A DNA stretch of 64,000 nucleotides from Reclinomonas americana ATCC 50394 (taxonomy: Eukaryota): the NCBI GenBank assembly GCA_048213135.1, contig PS015009.1, forward strand, positions 1,860,001 through 1,924,000. Direction: 5' to 3'. This document shows positions 36,862 through 52,250 of this stretch, one piece after another. A model generated the notes under the pieces. That model saw only the letters and a list, made by a program, of their open reading frames with translations, had not been told where the DNA came from and made no database searches. A program made the translations under genes and the position numbers. How positions within the stretch are numbered: position 1 is the first letter of the stretch; each line of letters starts with the position of its first letter.

Positions 36862-36879
36862 GACGTTCTGTTTTATGCA

Positions 36880-37023
36880 TTACAAAAACCAGCCCCCGTG
36901 CAGTATGGCAGGGAACAGCATCTCATAGTCCCGTTTCTTTATTTTCGCCGGACGCTGTTTTTTTGGTTGCTGCACGCTTCGCCGGGGTTTTCCGGGCCGC
37001 GGTTTTGTTGGAGGGGTTCGCAT
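36880..37023 (-). CDS. 47-aa basic peptide between umuD and umuC (MRTPPTKPRPGKPRRSVQQPKKQRPAKIKKRDYEMLFPAILHGGWFL)
   Basis: Manual translation; fills the umuD-umuC gap in the same orientation. Confidence 0.4.
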   Translation of the reverse strand: MRTPPTKPRPGKPRRSVQQPKKQRPAKIKKRDYEMLFPAILHGGWFL

Positions 37024-37032
37024 GAGAAACGT

Positions 37033-37464
37033 TTAAAACTTCCTGATGGCGTAGATCACCACGCCCCATATTTTATAATCGTGGAATTCGGTGATCTCTA
37101 TCGGCGACAATCTTGTTGTATCCGGTATCAGCCTTACCTTATTGATCTGTTGTTCGTACCGCCTGATAAGCATTTCGCCGTCCAGTACCGCGATGACGAT
37201 CCTGCCATTGGTTGGTTTGAGGCTGCGGTCAACAATAACGATATCGCCTTCGGTAATACCGGCATTTTCCATGCTGTTGCCGTTAACCCGCATAAAAAAG
37301 GTGGCGGGTTTGTTGCGGATGAGCTGCTCGTTCAGGTCGATGCCCCGCTCCATATAATCGTCGGCCGCGGCGCCAAATCCCGTAGCGTTTGCCGTGGGTA
37401 CTTCCTGCTGGGTGAACCGCTTGGAACCGTTGTAACTGCTGCCGAAAAAATTTTCCACTTCCAT
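37033..37464 (-). CDS. umuD: UmuD-like S24 family protein
   Basis: GFGAAADDY..IDLNEQL, ATFFMRVNGNSM..AGI.EGD, IWGVV; upstream of umuC. Confidence 0.9.
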   Translation of the reverse strand: MEVENFFGSSYNGSKRFTQQEVPTANATGFGAAADDYMERGIDLNEQLIRNKPATFFMRVNGNSMENAGITEGDIVIVDRSLKPTNGRIVIAVLDGEMLIRRYEQQINKVRLIPDTTRLSPIEITEFHDYKIWGVVIYAIRKF

Positions 37465-37478
37465 AAAAATATTTTTAA

Positions 37479-37497
37479 TTACTAAATTATTTAGTAA
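37479..37497. promoter_or_regulatory. Palindrome TTACTAAAT-T-ATTTAGTAA (CTAA-N5-TTAG core), candidate SOS box
   Basis: 9-bp perfect inverted repeat between divergent umuD and the 2H gene; imperfect second copy CTAA-aatag-TTGG at 37505-37517. Confidence 0.7.
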
Positions 37498-37570
37498 ATT
37501 TATGCTAAAATAGTTGGTTGTGCAAATTTTTGAACACTTGATTTTTTAAATCACGATTAAATACAGGGTT

Positions 37571-38191
37571 ATGAAGAAGATCATCAACAGCATACCCGGT
37601 TACAGGGTATATGAATACCTGCTGGTGCTGAATCCCCACGAGGAATTACGCCAGCGCATCATGCAGGTGAAACAGGCTTTTTTTGACACGTACAAGGCGG
37701 GCACGGCCCTGTACAGCAAACCGCACCTTACGCTGGTGAACTTTGTACAGTATGAAATGATGGAGGAGCGCATCATCAACCGGTTACAGCTGATCACCAT
37801 GGGCTTCCAGCCGATCAAGGTGGAACTGAAGGATTTCGGCAGTTTCCCGGCGCACACCATCTATATCAATGTTACTTCCAAAATGCCCATCCAGGGACTG
37901 GTGAAATCGGTACGTGCCGAAACACAGCGGCTGATGAAACTTAATGATGACCACAAACCGCATTTCATGCTGGAGCCGCACCTCACCATTGCCCGGAAAC
38001 TGCAACCCTGGCAATATGAGCAGGGATGGCTGGAGTACAGTCACAAACATTTCACAGGGCGTTTCATCGCGGATGCCATGCTGCTGCTGAAAAGACCGGT
38101 GGGTGAAATGAAATACGAGATCATCCGGCGTTTTGATTTCCAGAACCTCCCGGTAAGTACGAAGCAGGGTGACCTGTTCGGTGGTATATAG
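37571..38191 (+). CDS. 2H phosphoesterase (2'-5' RNA ligase family)
   Basis: Two HxT motifs (PHLTLV, PHLTIA); C-terminal QGDLF. Confidence 0.88.
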   Translation: MKKIINSIPGYRVYEYLLVLNPHEELRQRIMQVKQAFFDTYKAGTALYSKPHLTLVNFVQYEMMEERIINRLQLITMGFQPIKVELKDFGSFPAHTIYINVTSKMPIQGLVKSVRAETQRLMKLNDDHKPHFMLEPHLTIARKLQPWQYEQGWLEYSHKHFTGRFIADAMLLLKRPVGEMKYEIIRRFDFQNLPVSTKQGDLFGGI

Positions 38192-38410
38192 CGTGCGATA
38201 AAAGCTATGTGCTTTGCACCTTCACCTGAATAACCTGTATAATCCGAAATGAACGCCACACACTTTGTACCCGGTGTGGTGATGGCCCGTTTTTAATCCG
38301 GCTACCCAACTTAAAAGCAAGAGTTTAAGAACATCCTCCACCCTCCGCAGGATAGTCAGCGACACCGTACCCGTCAATTATTCATTAACCGTATCATCAA
38401 CAAAAATCTT

Positions 38411-39521
38411 ATGTCCGGGAAACTTCAGCAGGATCATCATAAAGTGCAGGCGCAGCAACAGTCAGAGGAAAAACAATACCTCCATGGCCGCGGGGCGCAG
38501 ATCAATACAAAAAACCGCTTCCTCAAAAACGAGGTTACAAGGGAACACACAGAAGCCATCGACGATTGGGAAGAATCCAATGTTCCAACGCAATACCTCG
38601 AACAGCAATCGAAGACGATCGTGAATAAAGTGGAAAGTAAGGATGTAGGCATGGGGTACAGCATGAACCCTTATGCGGGCTGCGAACACGGCTGCATCTA
38701 TTGCTATGCCCGTAATGTGCACGAATACTGGGGATACAGTGCAGGACTGGATTTCGAACGAAAGATCATTATCAAAAAAAAACGCCCCGCAACTGCTGCG
38801 TAAATTCCTGATGCACCCCAAGTGGGATGCCACACCCATCATGCTCAGCGGCAATACCGACTGCTACCAGCCCGCTGAACAAAAATACCGGCTCACCCGC
38901 GGACTGCTTGAGGTATGCAACGAGTTCAACCAGCCTGTGGGCATACTTACCAAAAACTCGTGGATACTTAAAGACAAAGATGTACTGCAGGAAATGGCAA
39001 AGAAGCAGATCGTTTCGGCGATGGTGTCCATCACTTCTTTCAACGAAGACCTGCGCCGTATTATGGAACCCCGCACTACAACGGCCAAACAAAAATTGAA
39101 AGTGATAGAAGAACTCAGCAAAGCGGGCGTTCGTATGGGTATTATGATGGGGCCTATGATACCCGGTTTGAATGAGCACGAAATGCAACGCATCATGAAA
39201 GCCGCGGCCGACAATGGCGCCACGTTTACCGCATATACGTTCATCCGACTCAATGGCGCTATCAAATTTTTATTCCACGACTGGCTCTATAAAAACTTCC
39301 CCAACCATGCGGATAAAGTATGGCACCTCATCGAGCAAAGCCACGATGGCAAAGTGAATGATACCCGCTGGGGTGTTCGCATGCGGGGCGAAGGCAATAT
39401 CGCCGAACTGGTAGCGCAGCAATACAAAAAGTATGGGAAACTCTACAACATGAATGCGGAAGAGTGGAGCTTGAATTCGAAGTTGTTCAGGAGGCCGGGA
39501 GAGCAGGGGAAGTTGTTTTAA
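38411..39521 (+). pseudogene. PA0069/SplB-like radical SAM protein, split by a +1 frameshift in an A9 run (38774-38782); probably a sequencing error
   Basis: NPYAGCEHGCIYCYAR (CxxxCxxC); continues as NAPQLL..SGNTDCYQPAE..EPRT; C-terminal QGKLF. Confidence 0.88.
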
Positions 39522-39676: not shown

Positions 39677-39769
39677 ATGCTACGCAATATTTCACTCATA
39701 GGAGCGCAAAGCGGGTACAGCCACAAGGGCTTTGATACCACGTGCGGGGCATGTTATGCTGAAGGATAG
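39677..39769 (+). CDS. Putative leader peptide 1 (MLRNISLIGAQSGYSHKGFDTTCGACYAEG)
   Basis: ATG after an A-rich initiation region; followed by a terminator whose 5' arm is complementary to 39744-39750 inside the ORF. Confidence 0.6.
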   Translation: MLRNISLIGAQSGYSHKGFDTTCGACYAEG

Positions 39770-39794
39770 TACCAAAACTGATTCGCTATAACAC

Positions 39795-39822
39795 AAGCCC
39801 CGCCTGAGATGCGGGGTTTTTT
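39795..39822 (+). terminator. Intrinsic terminator / attenuator 1
   Basis: aagccccgc-ctgagat-gcggggtt followed by a T run. Confidence 0.85.
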
Positions 39823-39873
39823 ATTATCCCGATCTCCAAAACCGGGTGGAAGTTCCGGCGTTCAAAAAAACAG

Positions 39874-39984
39874 ATGATGACACGACAATATAAACGATTT
39901 ACAGCCAATGGCCGGTTGTTCGCAAAAAAAATGCGAATACACGGCGCCGGTAGTAATGATAAACCTAACAACGACCGAAGTTGA
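39874..39984 (+). CDS. Putative leader peptide 2 (MMTRQYKRFTANGRLFAKKMRIHGAGSNDKPNNDRS)
   Basis: Manual translation; four CGA codons; CGACCG (39972-39977) is complementary to the next terminator arm. Confidence 0.55.
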   Translation: MMTRQYKRFTANGRLFAKKMRIHGAGSNDKPNNDRS

Positions 39985-40013
39985 ACAGGTAAGGTATAGC
40001 CATGCCTTCTTGC

Positions 40014-40045
40014 AGCCCGGTCGCCAGTAACGACCGGGCTTTTTT
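40014..40045 (+). terminator. Intrinsic terminator / attenuator 2
   Basis: agcccggtcg-ccagtaa-cgaccgggct followed by TTTTT. Confidence 0.85.
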
Positions 40046-40072
40046 ATGCCCGAAAATAAAAGGAGGTATGAC

Positions 40073-40281: not shown

Positions 40282-40352
40282 GTTGTCTTTAGCTTATTGG
40301 CAAAGTACTGCACTGTGAATGCAGGGAACAGGGTTCGATTCCCGGAGACAAC
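40282..40352 (+). tRNA. tRNA-His(GUG), T-stem one base short
   Basis: G-1:C73 pair, acceptor ttgtctt/gagacaa, anticodon arm ctgca-ctGTGaa-tgcag, TTCGATT loop; no encoded CCA. Confidence 0.8.
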
Positions 40353-40364
40353 CCCGGAAGATAA

Positions 40365-40458
40365 TACGGCCTGGTGTAAGGGTAACATGACCAGCCTCCT
40401 TCCTTTCTGGAAGGTAAACACAGGCGGGATGTTTCCGGTTCAAATCCGGAGGTCGTAC
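40365..40458 (+). ncRNA. tRNA-like element with normal acceptor/D/T arms and an expanded structured anticodon region
   Basis: tacggcc/ggtcgta acceptor, tccgg-TTCAAAT-ccgga T arm; anticodon region replaced by gcct-ccttcc-tttct-ggaagg-taaacac-aggc. Confidence 0.65.
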
Positions 40459-40467
40459 AAAGATGAA

Positions 40468-40513
40468 AGTATTACCGGGGGTGCGGTGCCGGGTAATCCC
40501 GGCCGGTAATACT
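40468..40513 (+). ncRNA. Minihelix-like degenerate tRNA remnant
   Basis: agtattaccgg/ccggtaatact stem enclosing ccggg-taat-cccgg; related to 40623-40687. Confidence 0.4.
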
Positions 40514-40519
40514 GTATTC

Positions 40520-40591
40520 TGCGGCCTGGTGTAATGGTTAGCACGCCACTCTTATAAGGTGGTGATCCCGGTTCAAGTCCGGGGGCCGCGA
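40520..40591 (+). tRNA. tRNA-Ile(UAU)
   Basis: tgcggcc/ggccgcg acceptor, gtgt/gcac D stem, ccact-ctTATaa-ggtgg anticodon arm, cccgg-TTCAAGT-ccggg T arm; no encoded CCA. Confidence 0.85.
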
Positions 40592-40622
40592 CAAAAGGAA
40601 GGAGCAGGTAAGTGATTAAAAT

Positions 40623-40687
40623 ATTACCGGGTGGTGTATTGGAGAGTTCACCAGGCTTTGGCCCCGGGTTATGCCCGGCCCGGTAAC
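40623..40687 (+). ncRNA. Degenerate tRNA-like element (possible Gln-UUG remnant)
   Basis: ttaccggg/cccggtaa acceptor-like stem, gtg/cac D-like stem, ggc-tttg-gcc mini anticodon arm, ccggg-ttatg-cccgg T-like arm. Confidence 0.45.
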
Positions 40688-40689
40688 AA

Positions 40690-40761
40690 GGCGGTCTGTT
40701 GTAACGGTAACCTACTACTCTCATAAGGTAGATGATCCCGGTTCAAATCCGGGGGCCGCAA
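40690..40761 (+). tRNA. tRNA with CAU anticodon (Met or Ile2), weak D stem, G1:A72 mismatch
   Basis: ctact-ctCATaa-ggtag anticodon arm, cccgg-TTCAAAT-ccggg T arm; close paralogue of the UAU tRNA. Confidence 0.72.
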
Positions 40762-40766
40762 CAAAA

Positions 40767-40839
40767 TGGTTCGTAGCTCAATGGTGAGAGTACCCGGCTT
40801 TTAACCGGGGGGCTGTGCGTTCGAATCGCACCGGGCCAG
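40767..40839 (+). tRNA. tRNA-Lys(UUU)
   Basis: tggttcg/cgggcca acceptor, gctc/gagt D stem, cccgg-ctTTTaa-ccggg, gtgcg-TTCGAAT-cgcac; no encoded CCA. Confidence 0.9.
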
Positions 40840-40902
40840 CAAAAGAAACAAGGTTGCAGGGTAGTGCATTTTCATCCTCCGGTAACCGCAAAAAATAAAA
40901 CG

Positions 40903-41970
40903 ATGAACGATCAGCAAATGATAATTAATGCCAACAGCGTTTTTGCATCGCATTACCTCGACAGTAAGGCACTGTACATGTATGCTTTCAAAACGGTGCC
41001 CTGCGTGAGTTTTGTCAATCATATTGACGGTGAAAAAGCTTTTGACGCGGTAAAGGAAAAATATGGAACGATGATTTTGTCGGTACACCGTTACAGGAGC
41101 TACAACAGGAAAGACACACATGCGGATTTCGACGACACCCTGGTATTGCTGAGTAATAACTGCCTGCTGGAATTCGATTCAGGTTATTGTGAAATACTCC
41201 ACAATTACGGTTCCGAAGCATTCGTAAAAGACCTGACCGCTTTCCTGAAAACATTCAGGGAGCGGCAAAGGAAAAAACCGCTGGAGATCAACCTGATCGT
41301 TCGCAATGGCGGTTACCTGGAACTGAAGTCCATGGAAGTGAAAAAGACAGCCCTTGACCTGGGCCTGTTTTATGAAGATGATTTCAGGGAAACCGACACC
41401 ATCATCCGGCAAAGACTGAACCAGAAAAATGACAAAGGTATTGTACTGCTGCACGGGTTACCCGGCACCGGTAAAACAACTTACCTGCGCCACCTGATCG
41501 GGAAGATTAAAAAGAAAGTGATGTTCCTGTCACCCAATATCGCCGGAAGCCTGGTTGATCCTGAGTTCATCGACCTGCTGATCGACAACCCCAACAGTGT
41601 ACTGATCATTGAGGATGCGGAAAATATTATTATGGACAGGAGGAACAACAGCAATTCATCTGTATCCAACCTGCTGAATATATCCGATGGCCTGCTGGCA
41701 GACTTCCTGAATGTTCAGCTGATCTGCACTTTCAACAGTTCGCTTACGCTGGTCGACAGCGCGCTGATGCGTAAAGGGCGGCTGATAGCGAAATATGAAT
41801 TCGGCAAATTAGGCATCGGTAAAGCGCAGGCGCTGAGCGATCATTTGGGCAACAGCACCATCATCAACAAACCGATGACCATTGCCGAGATCGCCAACCA
41901 GCATGAGAAGGAGCAGCAGCCGGAAAGGGTCGAAGTGATCGGGTTCCGACGGGAAGAATTGATGAACTGA
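40903..41970 (+). CDS. AAA+ ATPase with uncharacterised N-terminal domain
   Basis: Walker A GLPGTGKT, Walker B LIIED, SNLLNISDGL, ALMRKGRL arginine finger; ATG40903 preferred. Confidence 0.9.
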   Translation: MNDQQMIINANSVFASHYLDSKALYMYAFKTVPCVSFVNHIDGEKAFDAVKEKYGTMILSVHRYRSYNRKDTHADFDDTLVLLSNNCLLEFDSGYCEILHNYGSEAFVKDLTAFLKTFRERQRKKPLEINLIVRNGGYLELKSMEVKKTALDLGLFYEDDFRETDTIIRQRLNQKNDKGIVLLHGLPGTGKTTYLRHLIGKIKKKVMFLSPNIAGSLVDPEFIDLLIDNPNSVLIIEDAENIIMDRRNNSNSSVSNLLNISDGLLADFLNVQLICTFNSSLTLVDSALMRKGRLIAKYEFGKLGIGKAQALSDHLGNSTIINKPMTIAEIANQHEKEQQPERVEVIGFRREELMN

Positions 41971-41979
41971 TGAATACCG

Positions 41980-43002
41980 CTAGCCGGGAATCTTATCATA
42001 CAACTCAGCCATCAGCCTTACTTTTTTCCTGATCTGCCTGACGATATTGGACGGGGATATGACCCTCAACCCTTCGCCAAAACCCATGAGTTCTCTTTCC
42101 AGTTCAAAATTGGGAATGACCTCTATACTGAAAAGGGTTCCGCCTTTTACCGGTTCGAGTGTTTTTTGCGAAGGGTGAATGGGCTTGGTTTTGATATAAG
42201 GAGCCTGGCGGTGGCTGGCCCAGAACACAATAAGGGTGGGCTTTTCGGCGAAGTTGCGGGTAACGCCCACAATATCCCTGAAATAAGTTTGGGCATCGAA
42301 ATTCCGGTGCTCTAGAAAAAGTTCGTCAGGATGAGGTTGTACCTGCTGGATACGATCAAGTGCGAAAGTGATCAATTCCTTTCCCTTTTTGATCATACCC
42401 AGCACAAACCAGCGGTTGCGGTATTCTTTAAGCAGGCATGGATAGAAGATGATGTCATTGGCCTGCCGGGCCTTGAAAGACTGGTAAGTTAATACAACAG
42501 TGGTACGTCCAACGATGGCTTTGTATAATACATCCAGCCATTCGATACCGGTGAGCAGGTCGTTCTTTTCAAAATCGATGACCGGCGATTGGGCATGCTG
42601 TTCACTGTAGATCTTGTCTTCCAGTTTATTGACCATTTCATTAACATCATTGAAATGCGTGAACCCTTTGAACTGGCGCAGGAGATGCGATACTTCCTGG
42701 AGGATGTTCAGGTCCTGGGAGGTAAGCGGGATATTGGTGATCGAGTATTCCGGGTCTTCGTAGCTGTAATATTTTTTTTCAGTTACGATGATCGGGGCGT
42801 TATACCCCAGTTTGTCGCTGCGCATGGCGTTGAGGTCAAGCCGTATGGTACGCAGACTTACACCCCTGTCGAGTCCTTCGTATTCATAAAGGGCATCATT
42901 GCAGGCATCAATTAGCTGCTCAATGGTCCATTTGCGGCGGCGGTTCTGAAGACATTTATCAATGGTCCGGTACCTGATCAGGGCGTTGCGGTTAACGGGC
43001 AT
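41980..43002 (-). CDS. WYL-domain transcriptional regulator (wHTH-WYL-WCX)
   Basis: N-terminal NRNALIRY..ID..L wHTH, P.LLKEYRNRWFVLG, FALDRI, C-terminal WCX; divergent from TROVE. Confidence 0.93.
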   Translation of the reverse strand: MPVNRNALIRYRTIDKCLQNRRRKWTIEQLIDACNDALYEYEGLDRGVSLRTIRLDLNAMRSDKLGYNAPIIVTEKKYYSYEDPEYSITNIPLTSQDLNILQEVSHLLRQFKGFTHFNDVNEMVNKLEDKIYSEQHAQSPVIDFEKNDLLTGIEWLDVLYKAIVGRTTVVLTYQSFKARQANDIIFYPCLLKEYRNRWFVLGMIKKGKELITFALDRIQQVQPHPDELFLEHRNFDAQTYFRDIVGVTRNFAEKPTLIVFWASHRQAPYIKTKPIHPSQKTLEPVKGGTLFSIEVIPNFELERELMGFGEGLRVISPSNIVRQIRKKVRLMAELYDKIPG

Positions 43003-43038: not shown

Positions 43039-43061
43039 ACTGTGCAAATAGATTGCACAGT
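43039..43061. promoter_or_regulatory. Inverted repeat ACTGTGCAA-N5-TTGCACAGT, candidate WYL operator
   Basis: Perfect 9-bp arms in the WYL/TROVE intergenic region, just upstream of an imperfect -7 element (GAgcTTTG). Confidence 0.7.
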
Positions 43062-43106: not shown

Positions 43107-44627
43107 ATGAAATTTAACCTGAAACTGAGAAGCAAAACAAAACAAGTAAGGAACTACGAAGGAGAAAAAGCATTTGTGCTGACCCCGAAGCTGGAACTGT
43201 ATACTGCTGTAGTTACTGCCGGTCTGAGCGACCAGTTCTACGAAACCGCACCGGAAAAGCTGGCCCGTATCCGGCAACTGATAGCTGCCAACGACCCGGT
43301 TTTCACAGCAAAGCTGGCAGTATATGCCCGGGAAGCGATGCACCTCCGCAGCATACCCCTGGTACTGGCTGTGGAACTGGCAAAACAGCACAGCGGCGAT
43401 ACACTGGTAAGTGAACTGGCCAGCCGGGTAATACAAAGGGCTGATGAAATAGCGGAACTGCTGGCTTACTACGCCCAGGCGAATGAACGGAAAGACATAA
43501 AACAACTGAATAAGCTGAGTAAGCAACTGCAGAAAGGCCTGGCGGAAGCATTTAACCGGTTCGACGAATACCAGTTTGCCAAATACAACCGTGATGCCAA
43601 AGTGAAACTGAAAGATGCCCTGTTCCTGGTACACCCGAAAGCGAAGAATGAAGAACAGCAGGTGCTGTTCAACAAAATAGTGAAAGATGAACTGCAGGTT
43701 CCGTATACCTGGGAAGTGGAAATGAGTGTGGCGGGACAACAAAAATTTGACTCTGCGGAAGTGAAGAAAGCGGCTTTCCGTGCAAAATGGGAAGAGCTGA
43801 TCTTCAGCAACAAAATGGGTTATATGGCAACGCTGCGTAACCTGCGCAACATACTGGAAGCGGAAGTGAGCAAAGAAGCACTGCAGAAAATATGTGAATA
43901 CATCGCCAGTGAAAAGGCGGTAGCGGCAAGTAAACAACTGCCGTTCCGGTTCCTGGCGGCGTACAGGGAACTGAAATCATTAAACAACGGTCGTACCGGT
44001 AAAGTGCTGGATGCGCTGGAAGATGCGATCCGGCACAGCGCAGCCAACATCGCAGGTTATAATGAAGATACCCGCGTGGTGATCGCTGCCGACGTAAGTG
44101 CCAGTATGCAAAAAAACATCAGCGCAAAAAGCAAACTGATGTATTACGATATTGGACTGGTGCTGGCCATGCTGCTGCAAAGCCGCTGCGAAAATGTGGT
44201 TACCGGCATATTCGGTGATACCTGGAAAGTGATCAGCATGCCGAAGAAAAATATACTGGCTTCCGTAACCGGTTTTTATGGCCGTGAAGGTGAAGTGGGT
44301 TACAGCACCAATGGTTACCTGGTGATCAAAGACCTGCTGCAAAGGAAAAGGGTGGTTGATAAGGTAATGATCTTCACCGATTGCCAGCTGTGGAACAGCT
44401 ACAACAGCGGTGAAAGCATCGCAAACCTGTGGAAAAAATACAAACAGGTAGCGCCGGGTGCCAAACTGTACCTGTTCGACCTGGCCGGTTATGGCCATGT
44501 TCCGCTGAATGTGATGAGGGATGATGTGTTCCTGGTAGCGGGCTGGAGCGATAAGATCTTCCAGGTACTGAAAGCAATAGAAGAGGGCAGCGATGCGGTA
44601 AAAATGATCGATAGCATTGCCCTGTAA
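43107..44627 (+). CDS. rsr: Ro60/Rsr TROVE-domain RNA-binding protein with vWA domain
   Basis: Helical TROVE region (YAREAMHLRS, RADE, FDEYQFAKY, TWE, MATLRNLRN, LPFRFLAAY); vWA MIDAS DVSASM and IFTDCQ; AAGGAGG before ATG43107. Confidence 0.95.
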   Translation: MKFNLKLRSKTKQVRNYEGEKAFVLTPKLELYTAVVTAGLSDQFYETAPEKLARIRQLIAANDPVFTAKLAVYAREAMHLRSIPLVLAVELAKQHSGDTLVSELASRVIQRADEIAELLAYYAQANERKDIKQLNKLSKQLQKGLAEAFNRFDEYQFAKYNRDAKVKLKDALFLVHPKAKNEEQQVLFNKIVKDELQVPYTWEVEMSVAGQQKFDSAEVKKAAFRAKWEELIFSNKMGYMATLRNLRNILEAEVSKEALQKICEYIASEKAVAASKQLPFRFLAAYRELKSLNNGRTGKVLDALEDAIRHSAANIAGYNEDTRVVIAADVSASMQKNISAKSKLMYYDIGLVLAMLLQSRCENVVTGIFGDTWKVISMPKKNILASVTGFYGREGEVGYSTNGYLVIKDLLQRKRVVDKVMIFTDCQLWNSYNSGESIANLWKKYKQVAPGAKLYLFDLAGYGHVPLNVMRDDVFLVAGWSDKIFQVLKAIEEGSDAVKMIDSIAL

Positions 44628-44633
44628 AACAAT

Positions 44634-44676
44634 AAGGTGGTTCCGCCACGGCGGGCCACCTTTAAAAGTTCTTTGA
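44634..44676 (+). promoter_or_regulatory. Hairpin plus boxA-like GTTCTTTGA ahead of the ncRNA array
   Basis: aaggtgg...ccacctt hairpin 44634-44662, then GTTCTTTGA 44668-44676, resembling rRNA-leader boxB/boxA. Confidence 0.55.
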
Positions 44677-44702
44677 TCAAATTAAAATATTAAAAGAAAG
44701 TA

Positions 44703-44822
44703 AGGATGTCGTAGAAATGGGTTACTTCGTCACCATAACAGGGGCCAGGGTCCCGGGCAACCGGGAAGAGGTGCAAATCCTCAGCTTGACAGCGGCCATT
44801 TCTCATTTCGCCTGTTACTCCT
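44703..44822 (+). ncRNA. Y-RNA-like unit 1 (degenerate tRNA-like insert)
   Basis: GGATGTCGTAG..GTTACTTCG 5' motif, CGCCTGTTACTCC 3' motif; insert has cccgg-gcaa-ccggg and gagg-TGCAAAT-cctc T-like arm. Confidence 0.7.
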
Positions 44823-44829
44823 GAACTCA

Positions 44830-44965
44830 TTGAGGTGTCGTAGTGCAGCATTGCTTTGGTAGAGCATCCCGTCACAGGCGGGAAGGCCGCAGGTTCAAGC
44901 CCTGCTCTTCCATTACAACCGGAAGATAGCTCAGCAAAACGCGGCTGCCCGCCTGTCACCCTCAA
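44830..44965 (+). ncRNA. Y-RNA-like unit 2 (tRNA circularly permuted at the D loop)
   Basis: ttgagg/cctcaa outer stem; insert order D3' (ggtagagc), anticodon arm (tcccg/cggga), T arm (gcagg-TTCAAGC-cctgc), loop-closed acceptor (tcttcc/ggaaga), D5' (tagctcag). Confidence 0.78.
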
Positions 44966-44971
44966 AACTTA

Positions 44972-45090
44972 TAAATGATGCCGTAGAGCAGGGTTACTTC
45001 GTAATTCATATGGCTAGAATGTTTCACTTCCGGTGAAAATGCAGCGGGTTCGACTCCCGCCATGTGCCCTGTTCGCCTGTTGCTCATTTA
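44972..45090 (+). ncRNA. Y-RNA-like unit 3 (unpermuted D-anticodon-T body, Gly-like UCC loop, no own acceptor stem)
   Basis: taaatga/tcattta outer stem; attc/gaat D stem, tttca-ctTCCgg-tgaaa, gcggg-TTCGACT-cccgc. Confidence 0.78.
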
Positions 45091-45098
45091 CAATAAAA

Positions 45099-45218
45099 AA
45101 AGGTGCCGTAGGGTAGCGTTACTTCGGCTCTGTTAGTTGAACGGTTACAACCATGCCGCGGCATGATGTGGGTTCGAATCCCATACAGAAAATACCGCAG
45201 CCCGGTTTATCGCCCTTT
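45099..45218 (+). ncRNA. Y-RNA-like unit 4 (unpermuted tRNA body, shortened anticodon loop)
   Basis: aaagg/ccttt outer stem; tctgt/acaga acceptor, gttg/caac D stem, catgc-cgcg-gcatg, gtggg-TTCGAAT-cccat. Confidence 0.78.
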
Positions 45219-45263
45219 CTGTTTTTTGCTATTTTCAGTGTAACAACTGATCCATATAAGATA

Positions 45264-45391
45264 TTACAGGTGTCGTAGAGAAAAGTTACTTCGACTATTA
45301 ATCGGCGGGTCGCAGGTTCGAGTCCTGCTCCTTGCAAAAAGGATAGCTCAGTTGGTTAGAGCAGCTACTTTTTTCGCCTGTTACCCTGTAA
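45264..45391 (+). ncRNA. Y-RNA-like unit 5 (YrlA-type T-acceptor-D order, residual Asn-like anticodon loop)
   Basis: ttacagg/cctgtaa outer stem; cga-ctATTaa-tcg, gcagg-TTCGAGT-cctgc, tcctt/aagga closed acceptor, gctc-agttggtta-gagc D arm. Confidence 0.85.
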
Positions 45392-45397
45392 CCGTAT

Positions 45398-45518
45398 CCA
45401 GGTGCCGTAGATAAAAGCTACTTCGTACAAAAACGATCCAACGCAGGTTCGAATCCTGCTCCCTGCAAAGGGATGGCTGAGTGGTTAAGCAGACTGCTTT
45501 TATTGTTTGTCGCCCTGG
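45398..45518 (+). ncRNA. Y-RNA-like unit 6 (YrlA-type T-acceptor-D order)
   Basis: ccagg/cctgg outer stem; gcagg-TTCGAAT-cctgc, tccct-gcaa-aggga, gct-gagtggtta-agc D arm. Confidence 0.83.
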
Positions 45519-45565
45519 TTTTTTTATAACAAAACGGATCAGCTCCGTGAACAAAAAATACAGTC

Positions 45566-46324
45566 ATGAAAGAAATAATGAATGCACTGGAAAAGTTAGA
45601 AACCAGTGAAAAAATAAGGATACTGTACGCCTGCGAAACGGGCAGCAGGGCCTGGGGATTTCCATCACCCGACAGTGACTATGATGTACGTTTCATCTAT
45701 ATAAGAGAAAGGAACTGGTATTTGTCTCTGGGAAAACGGAAAGATACGCTTGAGCAAATGGCTGGTGATCTTGATATCACAGGATGGGATCTCAATAAGA
45801 GCCTGCTCCTGCTCTCCAGGTCAAACGCGGCGCTGATAGAAAGATTTCAATCGCCTGTATTTTACAAAAAAGATGAATTGTTTTACAGCGAAATGAGAGC
45901 ACTGGTGGAACGGAACTATTCTCCCATAGCCGTGTTCTTTCATCATTACGCACTGGCCGGTAATCTCTGGGAAGAGATGGACGATAAAAAAGAGGTGAGC
46001 CTGAAAAAATATTTTTATGTTATCCGGTCGTTGATGTCCTGTTACTGGGCCATGAAAACAGGTGAACTCATGCCCATGCACCTCGAAGGACTGATGACCA
46101 TATGGAACGACGAAGTGAAAGCCATGCTCCGGGATCTTGTCCGCGTAAAATCGGGTGTAAAGGAAGGGTATCTTTACCGCCCCGGGAAGCCGGAAACAGG
46201 CTGGATAACACAACTGTGGAAAGAAGTAGAAGAGGGAAAGGAGGGCCTGGCAACAAGGAAAGGCGACTTTAAAGAACTGAATGATTTTTTCACCAGCACA
46301 ATCAACAAAAATGCTGACAATTGA
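45566..46324 (+). CDS. Pol-beta superfamily nucleotidyltransferase (YcgL/RlaP-type)
   Basis: ETGSRAWGFPSPDSDYDVRF (GS..DxD), DITGWDL, LKKYFYVIR. Confidence 0.9.
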   Translation: MKEIMNALEKLETSEKIRILYACETGSRAWGFPSPDSDYDVRFIYIRERNWYLSLGKRKDTLEQMAGDLDITGWDLNKSLLLLSRSNAALIERFQSPVFYKKDELFYSEMRALVERNYSPIAVFFHHYALAGNLWEEMDDKKEVSLKKYFYVIRSLMSCYWAMKTGELMPMHLEGLMTIWNDEVKAMLRDLVRVKSGVKEGYLYRPGKPETGWITQLWKEVEEGKEGLATRKGDFKELNDFFTSTINKNADN

Positions 46325-47381
46325 CGACATAAAAGAAAAAGGCTGGCTGATATTCGAAGCCATCGCCGGCAGCAGGGCTTATGGCCTGGCAGGTGAAGGA
46401 TCAGATACGGACATCAAAGGCGTTTTTATACTGCCGCAGCATTTGCTGTATTCCCTGGATTATGTGCCACAGGTAACAAATGCTTCCAATGATATAGTAT
46501 ACTATGAACTGGGGCGTTTTATGGAACTGCTGGAGAAGAACAACCCGGGTATGATGGAAATGCTTAACATTCCCGAACACTGCATCCTGCTGAAACATCC
46601 TGTAATGGATAAGATAAAGCAGGAGGATTTCCTGTCCCGCCTTTGCGAACAACGTTTTGCCAACTACGCCTATGCGCAGGTAAAAAAGGCTTACGGCCTG
46701 GAAAAGAAGATCATCAACCCGGAAGATGGCAAACGGAAAAGCCTGCTGGACTTTTGTTATGTATATACCAGTGAGAAAGCGGTTAGCCTGCCCGGCTACC
46801 TGGCAGAAAAAGAGATCGACCAGGAGCAGTTGGGTTTGTCGGCGATCGATCATATGAAAGATTGTTACCGCCTCTATCTTTCAGAGAAAGGTAGGTACTC
46901 AGGTGTGGTTAAAAAAGAGCATTCCGATTCAGTTGCCCTGAGCCATATACCAAAAGGTGAGGAACCGGTTGGGCTTCTGTACTTTAATAAAGATGCTTAT
47001 TCTGTTCATTGTAAAAAATATAAAGAATACCGGGAATGGGAAGCAGAAAGGAACCCGCAAAGGTATGCAGCCACCATAGCGCATGGAAAGCGGTACGATT
47101 CAAAAAATATGATGCATGTTTTCCGCCTGCTGCTGATGGCAAAAGAGATCGCGACAGAAAGAAGGATCAATGTTTTCCGGTCCGACAGGGATTTGCTGCT
47201 GGATATTAAACAGGGAAAATTTGAGTATGACGACCTGCTCAACAGGGCTGCTGCTCTCCAGGCGGAACTACCTGCCCTGTATGCCGCATCTGGTCTGCGT
47301 GACGAGCCGGTGCCCGGATTGGCCAGTAAGTTGCTGGTGGAGATGCGAACCCTCCTGTATAAAGAGGAGAAGTTCAGGTAA
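46311..47381 (+). CDS. Second Pol-beta superfamily nucleotidyltransferase (RlaP-type, longer form)
   Basis: AGSRAYGL...SDTDIKGVF, NNPGMME, YDSKNMMHVFRLL; ATG46311 overlaps the upstream gene. Confidence 0.9.
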   Translation: MLTIDDIKEKGWLIFEAIAGSRAYGLAGEGSDTDIKGVFILPQHLLYSLDYVPQVTNASNDIVYYELGRFMELLEKNNPGMMEMLNIPEHCILLKHPVMDKIKQEDFLSRLCEQRFANYAYAQVKKAYGLEKKIINPEDGKRKSLLDFCYVYTSEKAVSLPGYLAEKEIDQEQLGLSAIDHMKDCYRLYLSEKGRYSGVVKKEHSDSVALSHIPKGEEPVGLLYFNKDAYSVHCKKYKEYREWEAERNPQRYAATIAHGKRYDSKNMMHVFRLLLMAKEIATERRINVFRSDRDLLLDIKQGKFEYDDLLNRAAALQAELPALYAASGLRDEPVPGLASKLLVEMRTLLYKEEKFR

Positions 47382-47468: not shown

Positions 47469-48920
47469 ATGAAAAAATTAAAAATAGAAGGAAAACAATT
47501 AAGGGCCATTGGTTACCCGGAAGGACCGGTGATCAGCATCGCTATGAAGACGATGGAAAAAAATTACAAACATCATACTCATGACGGGGCTATGAAAATC
47601 CTTGCTGCGGTGCTGGAAAACCCGGCATCGTATAAGGAAGACCAGGTGCTGGGCCCGGTAGCGGAACAATTGCTGCCAAAAGAAGACCCGGAAGGAGCGG
47701 AGATATCGCTTAACCAAACAGGTATCCGGTTCAATGTGTTCGGACAGGAATTTATTGAAGAGGGCGCCATGCACCAGATGTACCAGGCCGCCAAACTGCC
47801 GGTGAGTATAGCCGGTGCGCTGATGCCGGATGCCCACAGCGGGTATGGGTTACCGATAGGTGGTGTACTGGCAACAGACAACGCGGTTATACCTTACGGT
47901 GTAGGTGTTGATATCGGTTGCCGGATGTGCCTGAGCGTGTTTGATATTGATCCGAAAGAATTGTCGCAGCGGGAATCATTCTTCACAAGAGAATTGAACG
48001 AAGCCACATTGTTTGGAAGCGGTCAGCAGTTTGTACATGCTGAAGATCATGAAGTAATGGACCGGGAAGAATTTTATGCCACACCATTGCTGAAGAACCT
48101 GCACGGAAGGGCCTGGAAACAACTGGGATCGTCCGGCAGCGGTAACCACTTCGCGGAATTCGGTATCGTGGAAATAGGTGAAAAGGATGCGGTGCTGGGT
48201 ATTGAACCGGGTGTTTATACCGGTTTTCTTACCCATTCAGGATCAAGAGCCCTGGGCGCTAATATCGCCAACCACTATACCTTGTTAGCCAAAAAGAAAA
48301 GAAGGCTTCCGGGCGATGTGTCGCACCTGGCCTGGTTTTCACTGGATGAAGAGGAAGGGATGGAATACTGGCTGTCGATGAACCTGGCGGGTGATTATGC
48401 CTCCGCATGTCATCATGTAATACATGATAAGATCGCCAAACAACTGGGCCGGAAACCAATGAAACGGGTAGAGAATCACCACAACTTTGCCTGGAAGGAG
48501 AACTGGGAAGGCAAAGAAGTGATTGTACATCGTAAAGGGGCCACACCGGCAGGTAAAGATGTACTGGGTATCATCCCGGGATCTATGACTGCACCGGGTT
48601 ATATCGTAAAAGGCAAGGGTGTGGAAGCATCGGTTAACTCCGCTTCGCATGGAGCGGGAAGGCAGATGAGCCGTACCAAAGCAATGGCGAATATTACCGA
48701 GAAAGCAATGAAAGATATCCTGGCTGCCAATGGGGTAAAACTGATCGGCGGCGGATTGGATGAAGCGCCTTTTGCTTACAAGGATATTGAAAAGGTCATG
48801 CAATCACAGCAAACACTCGTTGATACCGTAGGAAAGTTTACACCAAAAATTGTAAAGATGGATGGCGCATCATCGAAGAAATGGACAAAGAAAAGAAGCG
48901 ATGATATCGCAGGTGAATAG
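47469..48920 (+). CDS. rtcB: RtcB RNA ligase (3'-phosphate/2',3'-cyclic phosphate to 5'-OH)
   Basis: MPDAH.GYGLPIGG, VGVDIGC, LGSSGSGNHF, HSGSR, HHN, HRKGAT, PGSM, SHGAGR. Confidence 0.96.
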   Translation: MKKLKIEGKQLRAIGYPEGPVISIAMKTMEKNYKHHTHDGAMKILAAVLENPASYKEDQVLGPVAEQLLPKEDPEGAEISLNQTGIRFNVFGQEFIEEGAMHQMYQAAKLPVSIAGALMPDAHSGYGLPIGGVLATDNAVIPYGVGVDIGCRMCLSVFDIDPKELSQRESFFTRELNEATLFGSGQQFVHAEDHEVMDREEFYATPLLKNLHGRAWKQLGSSGSGNHFAEFGIVEIGEKDAVLGIEPGVYTGFLTHSGSRALGANIANHYTLLAKKKRRLPGDVSHLAWFSLDEEEGMEYWLSMNLAGDYASACHHVIHDKIAKQLGRKPMKRVENHHNFAWKENWEGKEVIVHRKGATPAGKDVLGIIPGSMTAPGYIVKGKGVEASVNSASHGAGRQMSRTKAMANITEKAMKDILAANGVKLIGGGLDEAPFAYKDIEKVMQSQQTLVDTVGKFTPKIVKMDGASSKKWTKKRSDDIAGE

Positions 48921-49004: not shown

Positions 49005-52000
49005 ATGAGAAGAATTGCTTTTGTGGTATGGATGATGATCGCTTTTAATGCAGGGTTTGCACAGCAAAGAGTTTTTAATTATCCTTTGAAACTGAAATCA
49101 TGCCATGTAACTATAGAAGTTAACCAGTTCATTGCCAGCACCTGGATTGAACTGGAATTTTATAACCCCACAGCTGCAGAAGTGGAAGGTTACCAGCGGC
49201 TGAATTTTTCCGAAAACCAGGTGGTGTCTGGCTTTCAGCTTGACCTGGATGGAAAATACCGGGAAGGGTCGATAGAAGAAAGATGGAAAGCAACCAATAC
49301 CTATAATACGATTGTAGGCAAAAGAGTCGACCCTGCCTTGCTGCAGATGTACAGCCGTACAGACTATGGATTGAATATTTATCCTGTTCCCGCCAAAGGG
49401 AGCCGCAAGGTGAAAATATTTCTGCAGGAATTGGTGAAGGAAGACAGCAACAGGATCAGGTACACGCTGCCAATGAACTTCAGGGATACAACAACGAGCT
49501 TCAGTGTGCAGGTTAAAGTGATGCAATCATCCCAGGCACCTTACACCAATGCGGGTTTACTTGAAGAGAGCGCTTTCAGCCAAACAGATCTTGGTTATGG
49601 TCTTTATACTCAAAGTACCGGCATTGTGCTCAACAAACCCATTGATTTTTACCTACCCCTCTCTGAAAGTAATACCCGTCTTTGTCTTTCAACTGAAAAT
49701 GGCGTCTCCCGTTTTTTATTGCGTACCAGCCCTGTTGTACCGGCGATCAATGAAAAGCAGGTACAGTCGCTAACTGTTTTCTGGGATGTGTCGCGTTCCG
49801 CGAGGGGAAGAGACAGGGTGAAGGAGCTGGAATACCTGAGGCGATACATTGCATTGCACCAGGTGGGCAAAACGGAGATCGTTCTTTTTAACCAGAAACT
49901 GCGGCAAAAGATCATTTATAACAGCGCGACGGGAAGTTTTGATGCCACCAGGAAATACCTGCTGGAATATGATTGCGATGGCGGAACAGAATTGGCCAAT
50001 CTCAATTTTGCTTCGGTAAAATCAGATATGATCCTGCTGTTCTCTGATGGCGCCAGTGTTTTTGGAAAGGCTTTACCGGTGCCGGGGAATGTCCAGGTAA
50101 ACAGTATTGTATCGGGTAATATGTTTAATGAAAGAATGCTCGACCAGATCACATCTTCATCAGGAGGAAGAATCATTAACCTCAATCAATATACAGATCC
50201 GGCAAAGTCACTGGTGCGGGAGTACGCTATCAACTACCTGCTGGAAGTACGATCCGGGAATAAAACGGTGATGATTAATGAGCTGCTTCCGCTTCGTTAT
50301 AACAAAGTGATCGGCCTGTCGGGTATCGCACCGGAACAGGATACGATTGAACTGGTGTATGGCAACAGCAGTACGGGTAAGTATGTGCAACGCATCCCGG
50401 TTAGCCTGGCAGTGGGACAATGCAATAATTATTTATCCAACAAAGTGAGGATGCTGAAAAGCTACGATTCTATCATGTCGTATAATAATTATCGCAATTA
50501 CTATCGCTGGTACGATCAGCTGGCATTTGGTATCAGGGAAAAAGTGCTCACTTATCAAACGGCTTTCCTGGTATTGGAACGAATAGAAGATTACATCAAA
50601 TTCAATATAGAACCTCCTGCTGAACTGGAAGAAGCCTGCCGGCAGCGCAATTATGTATACAAAAGCGACTACCGGATAAAAGCGCTGGAGGAATATAAAA
50701 AGACCAATGACCTGCAAAGGGTTGTCAACAACTATAATCAGCGCATCAGGCGATGGGATAAAAACGCTCCACTGGTAGACCTGAATAAACCGCTGGAGAT
50801 ACCGGCAACAGGCGCTGGTGAAAGCATGACCTACACTACACCGAAGGGAGAAATGAAACAGTCGTTTATGCTGCCACTGCAACCCGGGGGAGGTGAATTA
50901 AAAGAAGTGGTGGTTACTGGTGCATTCAATACCAAACGAACCGCACGGCAAACCTCTTTTAATGTACAAGTGGTCAGCCAGGCTCAACTGGATGTGATCA
51001 GGCAGGTGGATCTTAACAATGCCCTTGCCGGTAAAGTATCGGGTTTGCAGGTAAGAAGCCAGTCTGCCGCAATGCTTGGTGCAGAAACCATTGTCAGGCT
51101 GAGAGGAGAGAATGGTTTAAACATAGGAAGATCTGCGCCGTTGTATGTGGTTAATGGAACCGTTGTTCCGGATTCTAGGGATATTAATTTAAACGACATT
51201 GAAGATGTGACGGTATTACAAGGCCCGGCGGCTGCGGCGTTGTTTGGTTCCGAAGGGGCGAATGGCGCTATCGTAGTCAATTATAAAAGGGCAAAACGGT
51301 TGTATGGAAATATGTGGGTCTCTTATGACCTCGAATCTGTGGAAGATGAAGACTACCTGCAGCAGGTACAGCAGGCAGAACTGATGGATGTATACAACAT
51401 TTTCAGGGAGCTGGAAAAAACCCACAGCAATTCACCCTGTTTCTATTTCGACATGGCCAGGCATTTTCATGAACGGGGTATGCACAGGGAGGCCATGGAA
51501 GTACTGGAAACCGCGGCGGAAATAAGCTCTTACAACAGCAAAGGCTTAAGGGCAATTGCCTACATACTTGAAGAATGGAAAATGTTTGACAAGGCCATCG
51601 CCATATACCGGCAATTGATTGCGGGGGAATACTATAGCGCTATGGTGAACAGGGAACTGGCCCTGGCCCTTTTCAGGAATAAACAATACCAGGAAGCGAT
51701 AGATGTGCTTAATGAAGTTATAAAACGACCCGACCAGGATGGTGAAGACAATACCCTTCAGAAAGAACAGGCGCTTTCGGAAATGAATGCTTTTATAGTG
51801 GCGAGCCCCATCACTCCTGATCTTTCCGACATTGACCTGCGCCTGGTAAAGACCATGCCTGCTGACTTGCGTATAACCGTTGGGGGTAATGAATCTATTT
51901 ACTTCTATAATAATATCAGGCTGACGGAGCCCGATGGAACCAGGTGCAGTTCGGTTAACCCCGATTCGCGTAATGGCAATCATTTTACAAGTGACGGGTT

Positions 52001-52250
52001 TTCAGAACGCTTATATTATAACAGCTATCCATCTGCCTGCGCCGAATATGTAGCGCACAAAGCAGAGAAAGGGAAATACAAAATAAATATCAATGCCTAT
52101 GACTGGCACAATACACCCGATCGCATACCCAGTTATGTCCGTGTAGTGGTATTCAAAAAATTCCACAGCTCCGGGCTGTCGGTAGAAGTAAAGAATATCC
52201 AGGTCGATAACCAGTACGGAGATGTATGCATCGCTAAAATCTCATGGTAG
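49005..52250 (+). CDS. Secreted multidomain protein: VIT, vWA-like, TonB-receptor plug, TPR and DUF2135-like C-terminus
   Basis: Signal peptide; VIT-like RVDPALL/YPVPAKGSR; WDVSRS and LFSDG; plug DIEDVTVLQGPAAAALFGSEGANGAIVV; helical repeats. Confidence 0.75.
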   Translation: MRRIAFVVWMMIAFNAGFAQQRVFNYPLKLKSCHVTIEVNQFIASTWIELEFYNPTAAEVEGYQRLNFSENQVVSGFQLDLDGKYREGSIEERWKATNTYNTIVGKRVDPALLQMYSRTDYGLNIYPVPAKGSRKVKIFLQELVKEDSNRIRYTLPMNFRDTTTSFSVQVKVMQSSQAPYTNAGLLEESAFSQTDLGYGLYTQSTGIVLNKPIDFYLPLSESNTRLCLSTENGVSRFLLRTSPVVPAINEKQVQSLTVFWDVSRSARGRDRVKELEYLRRYIALHQVGKTEIVLFNQKLRQKIIYNSATGSFDATRKYLLEYDCDGGTELANLNFASVKSDMILLFSDGASVFGKALPVPGNVQVNSIVSGNMFNERMLDQITSSSGGRIINLNQYTDPAKSLVREYAINYLLEVRSGNKTVMINELLPLRYNKVIGLSGIAPEQDTIELVYGNSSTGKYVQRIPVSLAVGQCNNYLSNKVRMLKSYDSIMSYNNYRNYYRWYDQLAFGIREKVLTYQTAFLVLERIEDYIKFNIEPPAELEEACRQRNYVYKSDYRIKALEEYKKTNDLQRVVNNYNQRIRRWDKNAPLVDLNKPLEIPATGAGESMTYTTPKGEMKQSFMLPLQPGGGELKEVVVTGAFNTKRTARQTSFNVQVVSQAQLDVIRQVDLNNALAGKVSGLQVRSQSAAMLGAETIVRLRGENGLNIGRSAPLYVVNGTVVPDSRDINLNDIEDVTVLQGPAAAALFGSEGANGAIVVNYKRAKRLYGNMWVSYDLESVEDEDYLQQVQQAELMDVYNIFRELEKTHSNSPCFYFDMARHFHERGMHREAMEVLETAAEISSYNSKGLRAIAYILEEWKMFDKAIAIYRQLIAGEYYSAMVNRELALALFRNKQYQEAIDVLNEVIKRPDQDGEDNTLQKEQALSEMNAFIVASPITPDLSDIDLRLVKTMPADLRITVGGNESIYFYNNIRLTEPDGTRCSSVNPDSRNGNHFTSDGFSERLYYNSYPSACAEYVAHKAEKGKYKININAYDWHNTPDRIPSYVRVVVFKKFHSSGLSVEVKNIQVDNQYGDVCIAKISW

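Follow-up and report, generated by a model that had tools for sequence, protein, structure and literature searches.

A varied, modular Y-RNA array downstream of Ro60

In the 64,000-nt stretch of DNA analysed here (the window), the space between a Ro60 gene and the first of two nucleotidyltransferase genes is occupied by a series of short, related units. What are these units, in what respects do they differ, and what might they do? Inspection of the sequence alone had led to the proposal that they form an expanded, modular repertoire of Y RNAs, in which a constant Ro60-binding handle displays tRNA elbows in several geometries. We find that the array is real, widespread and modular, and more varied than has been described for these RNAs. 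A covarying handle, tRNA bodies joined to it at three places, and conservation of the arrangement beside Ro60 genes of Bacteroidota all uphold the proposal; the notion that the cargo is derived from tRNA only is too narrow, because related arrays also carry cargo of other kinds.

A repair locus with six units 3' of Ro60

The repair locus has the order WYL–Ro60–RlaP–RlaP–RtcB, with the six-unit array 3' of Ro60 (Table 1). The closest chains to the window Ro60 in the PDB are those of phage Ro60 (9L5Y and 9KOP, E 2e-25), and RlaP is described as adding nucleotides to damaged RNA (10.64898/2025.12.29.696909). The palindrome 5' of Ro60 lies 48 nt before the Ro60 start, with 0.06 chance matches expected in the window, and may be bound by the WYL protein; a looser form of the pattern matches in 38 of 80 related loci (a count made with no control), and in Chryseobacterium often stands 5' of the array itself. 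The 9-nt motif that follows the hairpin after Ro60, presumably boxA-like, is found no more than 250 nt from the first unit in 13 of 77 loci (the window included), with one match on the reverse strand and one further upstream as controls; it was not found in the single rRNA operon examined. A scan for sigma-70 promoters and terminators, which does not cover the promoters of Bacteroidota, remained at chance level.

Table 1. Features of the repair locus and its Y-RNA array (positions in the window).
Feature	Position	Strand	Support
Accessory tRNA cluster (His, Ile-UAU, Met, Lys) and AAA ATPase	40282..41970	+	
WYL-WCX transcription regulator, divergent from Ro60	41980..43002	-	Pfam WYL 1e-11, WCX 1e-9
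Palindrome 5' of Ro60; candidate WYL operator	43041..43059	.	sole match in the window
Ro60/Rsr (TROVE + vWA), 506 aa	43107..44627	+	Pfam TROVE 9e-26
GC-rich hairpin after Ro60 stop, then conserved 9-nt motif	44635..44675	+	hairpin from sequence
Unit 1: handle, hairpin and T-loop arm (UGCAA variant), two crossing short helices	44700..44825	+	
Unit 2: tRNA body opened in the D loop	44829..44966	+	ARAGORN 113.5 as circle, junction position 15
Unit 3: unpermuted D – anticodon-like arm – T	44972..45090	+	Rfam tRNA 35.6 bits, ARAGORN 112.4
Unit 4: unpermuted tRNA-like body	45097..45220	+	Rfam tRNA 30.3 bits, model positions 1-71
Relic of a seventh unit, outer stem alone left	45234..45251	+	ends like empty-loop units
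Unit 5: YrlA-type T – closed acceptor – D	45264..45391	+	Rfam YrlA 43.5 bits, E 6e-8
Unit 6: YrlA-type T – closed acceptor – D, class-II-like D arm	45396..45520	+	Rfam YrlA 19.9 bits
RlaP nucleotidyltransferase 1	45566..46324	+	Pfam PF10127 2e-66
RlaP nucleotidyltransferase 2	46311..47381	+	Pfam PF10127 8e-23
RtcB RNA ligase	47469..48920	+	Pfam PF01139 3e-78

The accessory tRNA cluster and the AAA ATPase gene probably belong to the same repair island. The ATPase gene (40903-41970) may be a regular member of such islands, since a similar gene stands between a tRNA cluster and RtcB in one relative (locus L158, G418:C1:6573000-6581000), where three handle units are followed by ten tRNAs, the AAA-like gene and RtcB; no TROVE gene was found in that long-contig genome (G418). 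The four accessory tRNA genes of the window (40282-40840) are without an encoded CCA, a tRNA-like stretch lies near 40367-40460, and the same His, Ile-UAU, Met and Lys types are also found between Y RNA units of relatives. 5' of the tRNA cluster, positions 39677-40070 hold short leader-like reading frames, GC-rich hairpins and T runs, an attenuator-like arrangement. Just upstream (35578-39521) are a UmuC/UmuD-like pair, a 2H phosphoesterase and a radical SAM gene, that is, a damage-response neighbourhood. Directly 3' of RtcB (49005-52250) a VIT-domain protein is fused to a TonB plug and TPR repeats; TROVE genes often have VIT/vWA genes as neighbours.

The gap between Ro60 and the first RlaP gene measures 938 nt (44628-45565) and holds six units on the + strand, as the sequence-only reading had it; counted with 7-nt outer stems, they are 119-138 nt long rather than 120-136 nt. 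Every unit carries GRTGYCGTAG near its 5' end (at 44705, 44834, 44977, 45102, 45269 and 45401). These six copies are all there are in the 64 kb, with none on the reverse strand and a mean of 0.17 in shuffled sequence (n=30). Before GTTACTTCG stands a spacer that had been put at 7 or 8 nt; in units 1 and 3-6 it measures 6 nt. Of the features listed earlier, the 3' motifs and the six complementary stem pairs are all present. The first unit starts 73 nt past the Ro60 stop on the same strand, within the ~4 kb around a Ro60 gene in which bacterial Y RNAs are encoded. A covariance model of the unit-2 class, the training set of which includes unit 2 itself, recovers all six units at E <= 1.2e-6, the next match scoring 16.4 bits.

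The T arm is retained in all six units and the D-loop guanines in five; what changes is the order of the arms. In units 5 and 6 the T arm precedes the D arm, in units 3 and 4 it follows the D arm, and unit 2 starts with the 3' half of D, runs through an anticodon-like arm, T and a loop-closed acceptor, and ends with the 5' half of D. The proposed D-loop opening of unit 2 is confirmed by its score and junction when closed into a circle (Table 1), and the proposed T–acceptor–D order of units 5 and 6 by the order of their arms, weak YrlA matches and circle scores of 117.9 (unit 5, junction at 29) and 105.5 (unit 6). In unit 5 the opening is on the 5' side of the anticodon stem, with a closed 7-nt anticodon-like loop beside the handle; in the alignment of the unit-6 type (A6), 22 of 30 pairs show compensatory changes. 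The Rfam tRNA match of unit 3 covers model positions 7-64, the inner stem of the handle replacing the acceptor stem; ARAGORN calls it a tRNA-Gly, a call that borrows the handle as acceptor. Unit 4 has an acceptor stem of its own (5-6 bp), a shrunken anticodon arm and no CCA, and does weakly as a circle (86.8). Unit 1 is without a D arm and fails as a circle (77.1). The z-scores of single-sequence folding are -0.39 for unit 1, +0.16 for unit 4 and -2.1 to -2.7 for the others, so the structures of units 1 and 4 rest on homologues.

In one sequencing run (probably of DNA), a single contig covers the whole 4.6-kb stretch with all six units and 278 differing letters, so the array is not an assembly artefact. 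Contigs from two RNA runs of one study jump over 45092-45230, with 10 differing letters, so that unit 4 is gone as a block, most likely a strain difference. A depth peak at 45210-45363 in two RNA runs was discarded as an array signal, its source being 46-nt contigs of unrelated tRNAs. Contigs from three metatranscriptome runs, all of one study, span the array of a relative; they carry neither end nor strand information and may have DNA as their source.

A handle under selection and linked to Ro60

Folding of sequence-only alignments gives a handle composed of an outer stem, a bulged U, two pairs, a CGUA internal loop, an 8-bp inner stem and an unpaired WUACUUCG strand. That stems within the one locus differ and yet stay complementary had been read as covariation, and homologues bear this out. 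The fraction of paired cells and the pairs with compensatory changes are 93.8% and 20/26 in the unit-2 class (17 sequences), 96.8% and 18/20 in the unit-1 class (27 of 50 sequences), and 96.1% and 13/26 in the unit-3 class (9 sequences); in none of these three classes did any of 500 shuffles reach the observed value, and slid partners were 39-59% paired, figures to be read with the provisos that unit ends were picked by pairing, that the shuffles ignore kinship, and that the structures used for the unit-1 and unit-2 classes were derived from those same alignments. The Y-R pair adjoining the bulge, which was not scored in extraction, is present in 439 of 463 units. The WUACUUCG strand is kept in 74 units with an empty loop (the element also served in unit finding), so it is part of the handle and not of the tRNA fold. 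The published YrlA alignment has a 5' motif, 6-9 nt and then a YUAY element, and the spacing of the handle agrees with it; the papers place YUAY at the start of the variable loop, whereas here that element belongs to a handle common to all types of cargo.

As relatives we examined the best 80 among 503 Ro60 loci of GTDB genomes; they are nearly all of Bacteroidota and more than half of Chryseobacterium, and are therefore non-independent. A first pattern, run with the window included, matched 300 times downstream of Ro60 and 8 times upstream, never inside the gene and three times on the reverse strand; shuffles gave 1.3 matches. From these matches a weight matrix was trained which, combined with a stem score, called 463 units, five in the window and 458 in 76 of the 80 loci, with none on the reverse strand; unit 2 was missed by the matrix and entered by hand, making 464 inserts in total. 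At least three units are present in 72 of the 80 loci, at least five in 56 and at least eight in 19, the maximum being 12. In the four loci without units the sequence stops within 300 nt of Ro60, and in L034 the array lies upstream of Ro60. In L040 (8267-8660) a block of two units occurs as a tandem duplicate, which points to recent expansion of the array.

A strict pattern matched 7 of 20 Ro60-positive versus 3 of 281 Ro60-negative genomes among 301 of the phylum, the centre genome of which (G002) was picked as a carrier (a reversed control pattern gave 2 matches), and 19 of 22 matches lie 0.05-2.6 kb 3' of Ro60 on the same strand. In the family of G002, the unit-2-class covariance model matched 13 of 151 genomes; Ro60 was found in 3 of the 13 and in 9 of the remaining 10. 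A scan of viral DNA gave 20 stretches in 18 contigs, of which 8 have Ro60 within the fetched DNA and 12 have not; several fall in tRNA clusters. In viral contigs L121, L125, L133, L136, L138 and L139, Ro60 genes are flanked by up to eight handle units with further cargo, and in L123, L127, L130, L131 and L135 units stand within tRNA clusters in fetched DNA without Ro60. RlaP and RtcB are inside the fetched flanks in a minority of loci only.

Together these data show that the handle and the class-specific helices of its cargo are under selection, and that the handle is tightly linked to Ro60. Judged from their position and structure, the six units are very probably Y RNAs bound by the Ro60 encoded just upstream. 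Against this, and against the adaptor function considered below, we count the GYCGUAG motif, the genome in which no TROVE gene was found, the 12 of 20 viral stretches without Ro60 in the fetched DNA, and the small share of loci with RlaP and RtcB inside the fetched flanks. We also count the high turnover implied by the degenerate handle motif of unit 2 in the window, the collapse of a seventh unit and the loss of unit 4 in a relative.

Cargo classes and points of opening

Clustering of the inserts from the 80 loci separated the YrlA type (74 loci), a lone T arm (54), an empty loop (53), the unit-1 class (50), a second T-before-D group (44), the D-loop-opened type (16, plus 4 with a Leu-like D arm), a 23S type (15), one further class (14), the unit-3 class (8) and the unit-4 class (3). 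Outer stems are specific to each cargo class, and array order is regular: the unit-1 class comes first in 18 of 23 cases and the YrlA type last in 18 of 23. The relic of the seventh unit matches the ends of empty-loop units found at the same array position in L003, L006, L007 and L009. When 463 inserts were compared by BLAST with two tmRNAs, two RNase P RNAs and a single rRNA operon, the matches were of tRNA arms and 23S, apart from scattered weak ones. At L024:8105-8237 and in 13 other Chryseobacterium loci a conserved cargo (cluster 35) forms two hairpins and has no tRNA score; T-loop insertions of 20-60 nt occur in YrlA-type units of L024 (7786-7920), L033 (+2564), L037 (+3038), L053 and L067.

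Independently of the clustering, 360 of the 464 inserts (17 clusters) were closed into circles and scored by ARAGORN. A score of at least 100 was reached by 188 of the 360 inserts, versus none of 360 shuffles. The junction of the circle reports where the tRNA body is opened: for the main YrlA cluster it falls in the anticodon arm (114 of 118 units), for the two D-opened clusters in the D loop (13 of 16 and 3 of 4), and for the unit-3 cluster at the acceptor end (5 of 7). The unit-4 class fails this test (0/4) yet has an unpermuted full-length match to the tRNA model. At least two kinds of opening occur together in 16 of 80 loci and three kinds in two, one of which (L070) depends on a doubtful unit-1-class call; by cluster labels, five loci contain all three openings.

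Could such inserts be permuted pre-tRNAs, excised, joined by RtcB and matured to working tRNAs as in red algae? The circle scores just given, the RtcB and RlaP genes adjoining the array, and the cleavage by RNase P and addition of CCA described for M. smegmatis YrlA would fit; anticodon loops that are non-canonical or missing, acceptors of varying length, the lack of CCA, unconserved triplets and the many classes that have no tRNA body make it very improbable. In the window, the traits of a working tRNA in RF00005 (7-bp acceptor, free 3' end, canonical 7-nt anticodon loop, U33) are lacking, and the Rfam tRNA matches of units 2-4 are partial. The arrays do resemble the permuted tRNA genes of red algae and archaea in their inverted halves, closed acceptor and reconstitution in silico, and differ in that the ends are clamped in a Y-RNA handle and that neither anticodon loops nor acceptor stems are of the working-tRNA type (10.1101/312249).

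Unit 1 had been grouped with units 3 and 4 as an unpermuted, degenerate tRNA joined at the acceptor end. That description holds for units 3 and 4 and fails for unit 1: an ARAGORN score of 100 is reached by 0 of 15 and 1 of 33 members of its class. Class members instead share a hairpin and a T-loop arm framed by two crossing helices, the first of which forms in 29 of 48 units (swap control mean 15, maximum 23) and the second in 46 of 48 (mean 35, maximum 40), two units without a matching T loop having been left out. Unit 1 is a separate conserved class, not a degenerate tRNA.

In the main YrlA cluster, 19 of the 118 units, unit 5 among them, have a closed anticodon-like loop of 7 nt, which the last CG of the handle helps to close and in which the triplet varies; the T-before-D clusters overall have 19 triplets among 31 anticodon-like loops (counts without a control). 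The 23S-type unit is present in 15 of 80 loci and absent from the window. Its insert starts with up to 33 nt identical to 23S rRNA, which we take to be helix 69-70; the expected pairs, together with a short hairpin that replaces helix 71, leave 95.8% of cells paired, compensatory changes being confined to the short hairpin. A metagenome scan for this cargo gave 15 stretches: 11 inside arrays with this handle, 2 with a different 5' motif, in tRNA clusters that lie upstream of a Ro60 gene at some distance, 1 real large-subunit rRNA and 1 without context. A 23S-type and a D-loop-opened unit share an array in L156 and L159. Units of the type are seen at L011:6502-6668, L024:8527-8750 and L031:7609-7834, in 12 more loci, and in L149, L151, L156 and L159; after the 23S copy come ~70-150 nt of conserved structure, and the type also occurs in another lineage, where the handle motif differs. 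That the remainder of the unit copies other parts of 23S domain IV found no support in sequence (4 of 22 units at <= 20 of 200 shuffles).

Both the loops and the 23S cargo would be expected if the units were decoys, that is, Ro60-stabilised RNAs that mimic what tRNA- and rRNA-cutting toxins attack, whether the anticodon loop, the D loop, the acceptor end or 23S helices 69-70, and absorb the toxins, with RtcB and RlaP mending the real targets. The handle units in viral contigs, several within tRNA clusters, speak for decoys too, as does a suggestion in PMC7790460 that YrlA may competitively inhibit an anticodon nuclease; according to the same paper, that nuclease leaves YrlA uncut. The anticodon-like loops of the unit 2-4 classes differ in length and sequence, unlike a specific nuclease target, and empty units offer nothing as bait. 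We regard a decoy function as somewhat unlikely.

The 74 empty units speak for a view in which only the handle matters, the RNAs gating or stabilising Ro60 and the cargo being whatever compact fold recombination brought in from tRNA genes nearby, kept for nuclease resistance, with permutations as by-products of tandem tRNA arrays. Free tRNA genes 3' of Ro60, which in 16 of 80 loci lie between the units or close to them, the gain and loss of whole units, and the dimeric-tRNA origin and protective role proposed for YrlA (10.1101/312249; PMC4201824) are in keeping with such a history. Protection would need just one stable fold, however, and cargo classes are kept across genera with covarying arms, a fixed rank and outer stems of their own; 23S-derived cargo, moreover, is also found in the other lineage with a different handle motif. 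This explanation, which we judge unlikely as a whole, may account for the origin of the cargo, not for its retention.

Relation to known Y RNAs and possible function

At gathering score Rfam detects no Y RNA in the window. The sequence-only reading forecast YrlA (RF02553) matches for units 5 and 6 and none or weak ones for units 1-4; the direction was right, with no YrlA match for units 1-4, and the scores of units 5 and 6 (Table 1) fall below the cut-off of 69 bits. The Deinococcus Y RNA model RF01053 has no match at E <= 10 in 44300-45900 and gives 18.6 bits for a unit-4 homologue (cut-off 80); array-related searches returned no Rfam match to a cobalamin riboswitch, group I intron or Y_RNA. 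The units share with YrlA their place beside Ro60 on the same strand, a terminal stem with a conserved 5' strand and a YUAY-like element, and units 5 and 6 also have the order T arm, loop-closed acceptor, D arm. They differ in the 5' motif, GYCGUAG in all six window units, one letter from the GNCGAAN0-1G of YrlA (U stands at the differing place in 99% of the 463 units, which were selected by motif), in the topology of the other four (split D in unit 2, D before T in units 3 and 4, no D in unit 1), and in that the loop following the YUAY-like element in unit 5 resembles an anticodon loop. By the broad description of a bacterial Y RNA, a long stem from the 5' and 3' ends with a conserved 5' strand, the units belong, as covariation attests.

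Parts of this picture are in print. Table S1 of Chen 2014 names a single YrlA per species or genome for Chitinophaga pinensis, Niastella, Haliscomenobacter, Bacteroides, Fibrisoma and three Chryseobacterium genomes, and the paper describes at least two Y RNAs per species, five small RNAs at the Deinococcus locus, and opposite T/D orientations in Yrn1 and YrlA, treated as independent lineages in different species (PMC4201824). Deinococcus radiodurans Yrn1/Yrn2 with RNAs a, b and d (RF01053) thus offer a precedent for several small RNAs at one Ro60 locus; Yrn1, modelled as D–anticodon–T, has the orientation of units 3 and 4, and Yrn2 and YrlB are hairpins, as is the empty class here. The difference is that both orientations here sit on one homologous handle in one array. 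The Salmonella rsr-yrlBA-rtcBA operon likewise unites Ro60, Y RNAs and RtcB under a divergent regulator, whereas the present locus has WYL rather than RtcR, two RlaP rather than RtcA and six Y RNAs rather than two (PMC7790460).

Earlier, it could be said only that no account of mixed permutations in one array was known. YrlA, several Y RNAs per locus and the opposite orientation prove to be published; for D-loop-opened Y RNAs, mixed openings within an array and rRNA cargo we found no description in a search that covered part of the literature, text of PMC7790460, PMC8058203, PMC7824862 and PMC12135203 included. Further Yrl families were reportedly named by Sim and Wolin in 2018, so part of the present findings may be in print.

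What, then, might the array do? We consider the chances about even that it supplies adaptors coupling Ro60 to different tRNA- or ribosome-handling repair and decay enzymes. RNA damage would activate the WYL regulator; Ro60, the array, RlaP and RtcB would be made as one transcript, from which the units would be cleaved and bound by Ro60 through the handle. With its acceptor end sealed or replaced and its anticodon loop free to drift, the cargo could not decode and would display the tRNA elbow. Since the handle is attached to the anticodon arm in units 5 and 6, to the D loop in unit 2 and to the acceptor end in units 3 and 4, the Ro60 ring would sit at the anticodon end, at the corner of the elbow or at the acceptor end of the tRNA shape, and a protein gripping the tRNA would meet the ring at a different place in each particle. 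Candidate partners are RtcB, RlaP and PNPase. The role shown for Yrn1 is to tether Ro60 to PNPase, and the YrlA module has been described as folding into the L of a tRNA, the conserved elbow of which is proposed to be the effector site (PMC4201824; 10.1101/312249); the latter source (Wang 2018) presents a YrlA structure and the dimeric-tRNA model.

The arrays separate handle from cargo, and add D-loop-opened and pseudoknot-like classes to the Y RNAs, classes for which the literature searched held no description; the Rfam cut-off leaves most members of this family undetected. A tentative reading, possible rather than probable, is that the handle is a general display cassette, a damage-induced library of Ro60 particles that would show pieces of the translation apparatus as if broken and clamped: tRNA opened at the anticodon arm, D loop or acceptor end, the T arm by itself, a T-loop module with a pseudoknot and also, among relatives, helices 69-71 of 23S. 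If so, each class would serve a different repair enzyme or trap a different ribotoxin, and cassettes would be gained and lost as units by bacteria and phages. Up to a dozen modules on one handle stand at a single locus in culturable strains of Chryseobacterium, Paraflavitalea and Flavobacterium, which makes the question of what each module does a testable one.
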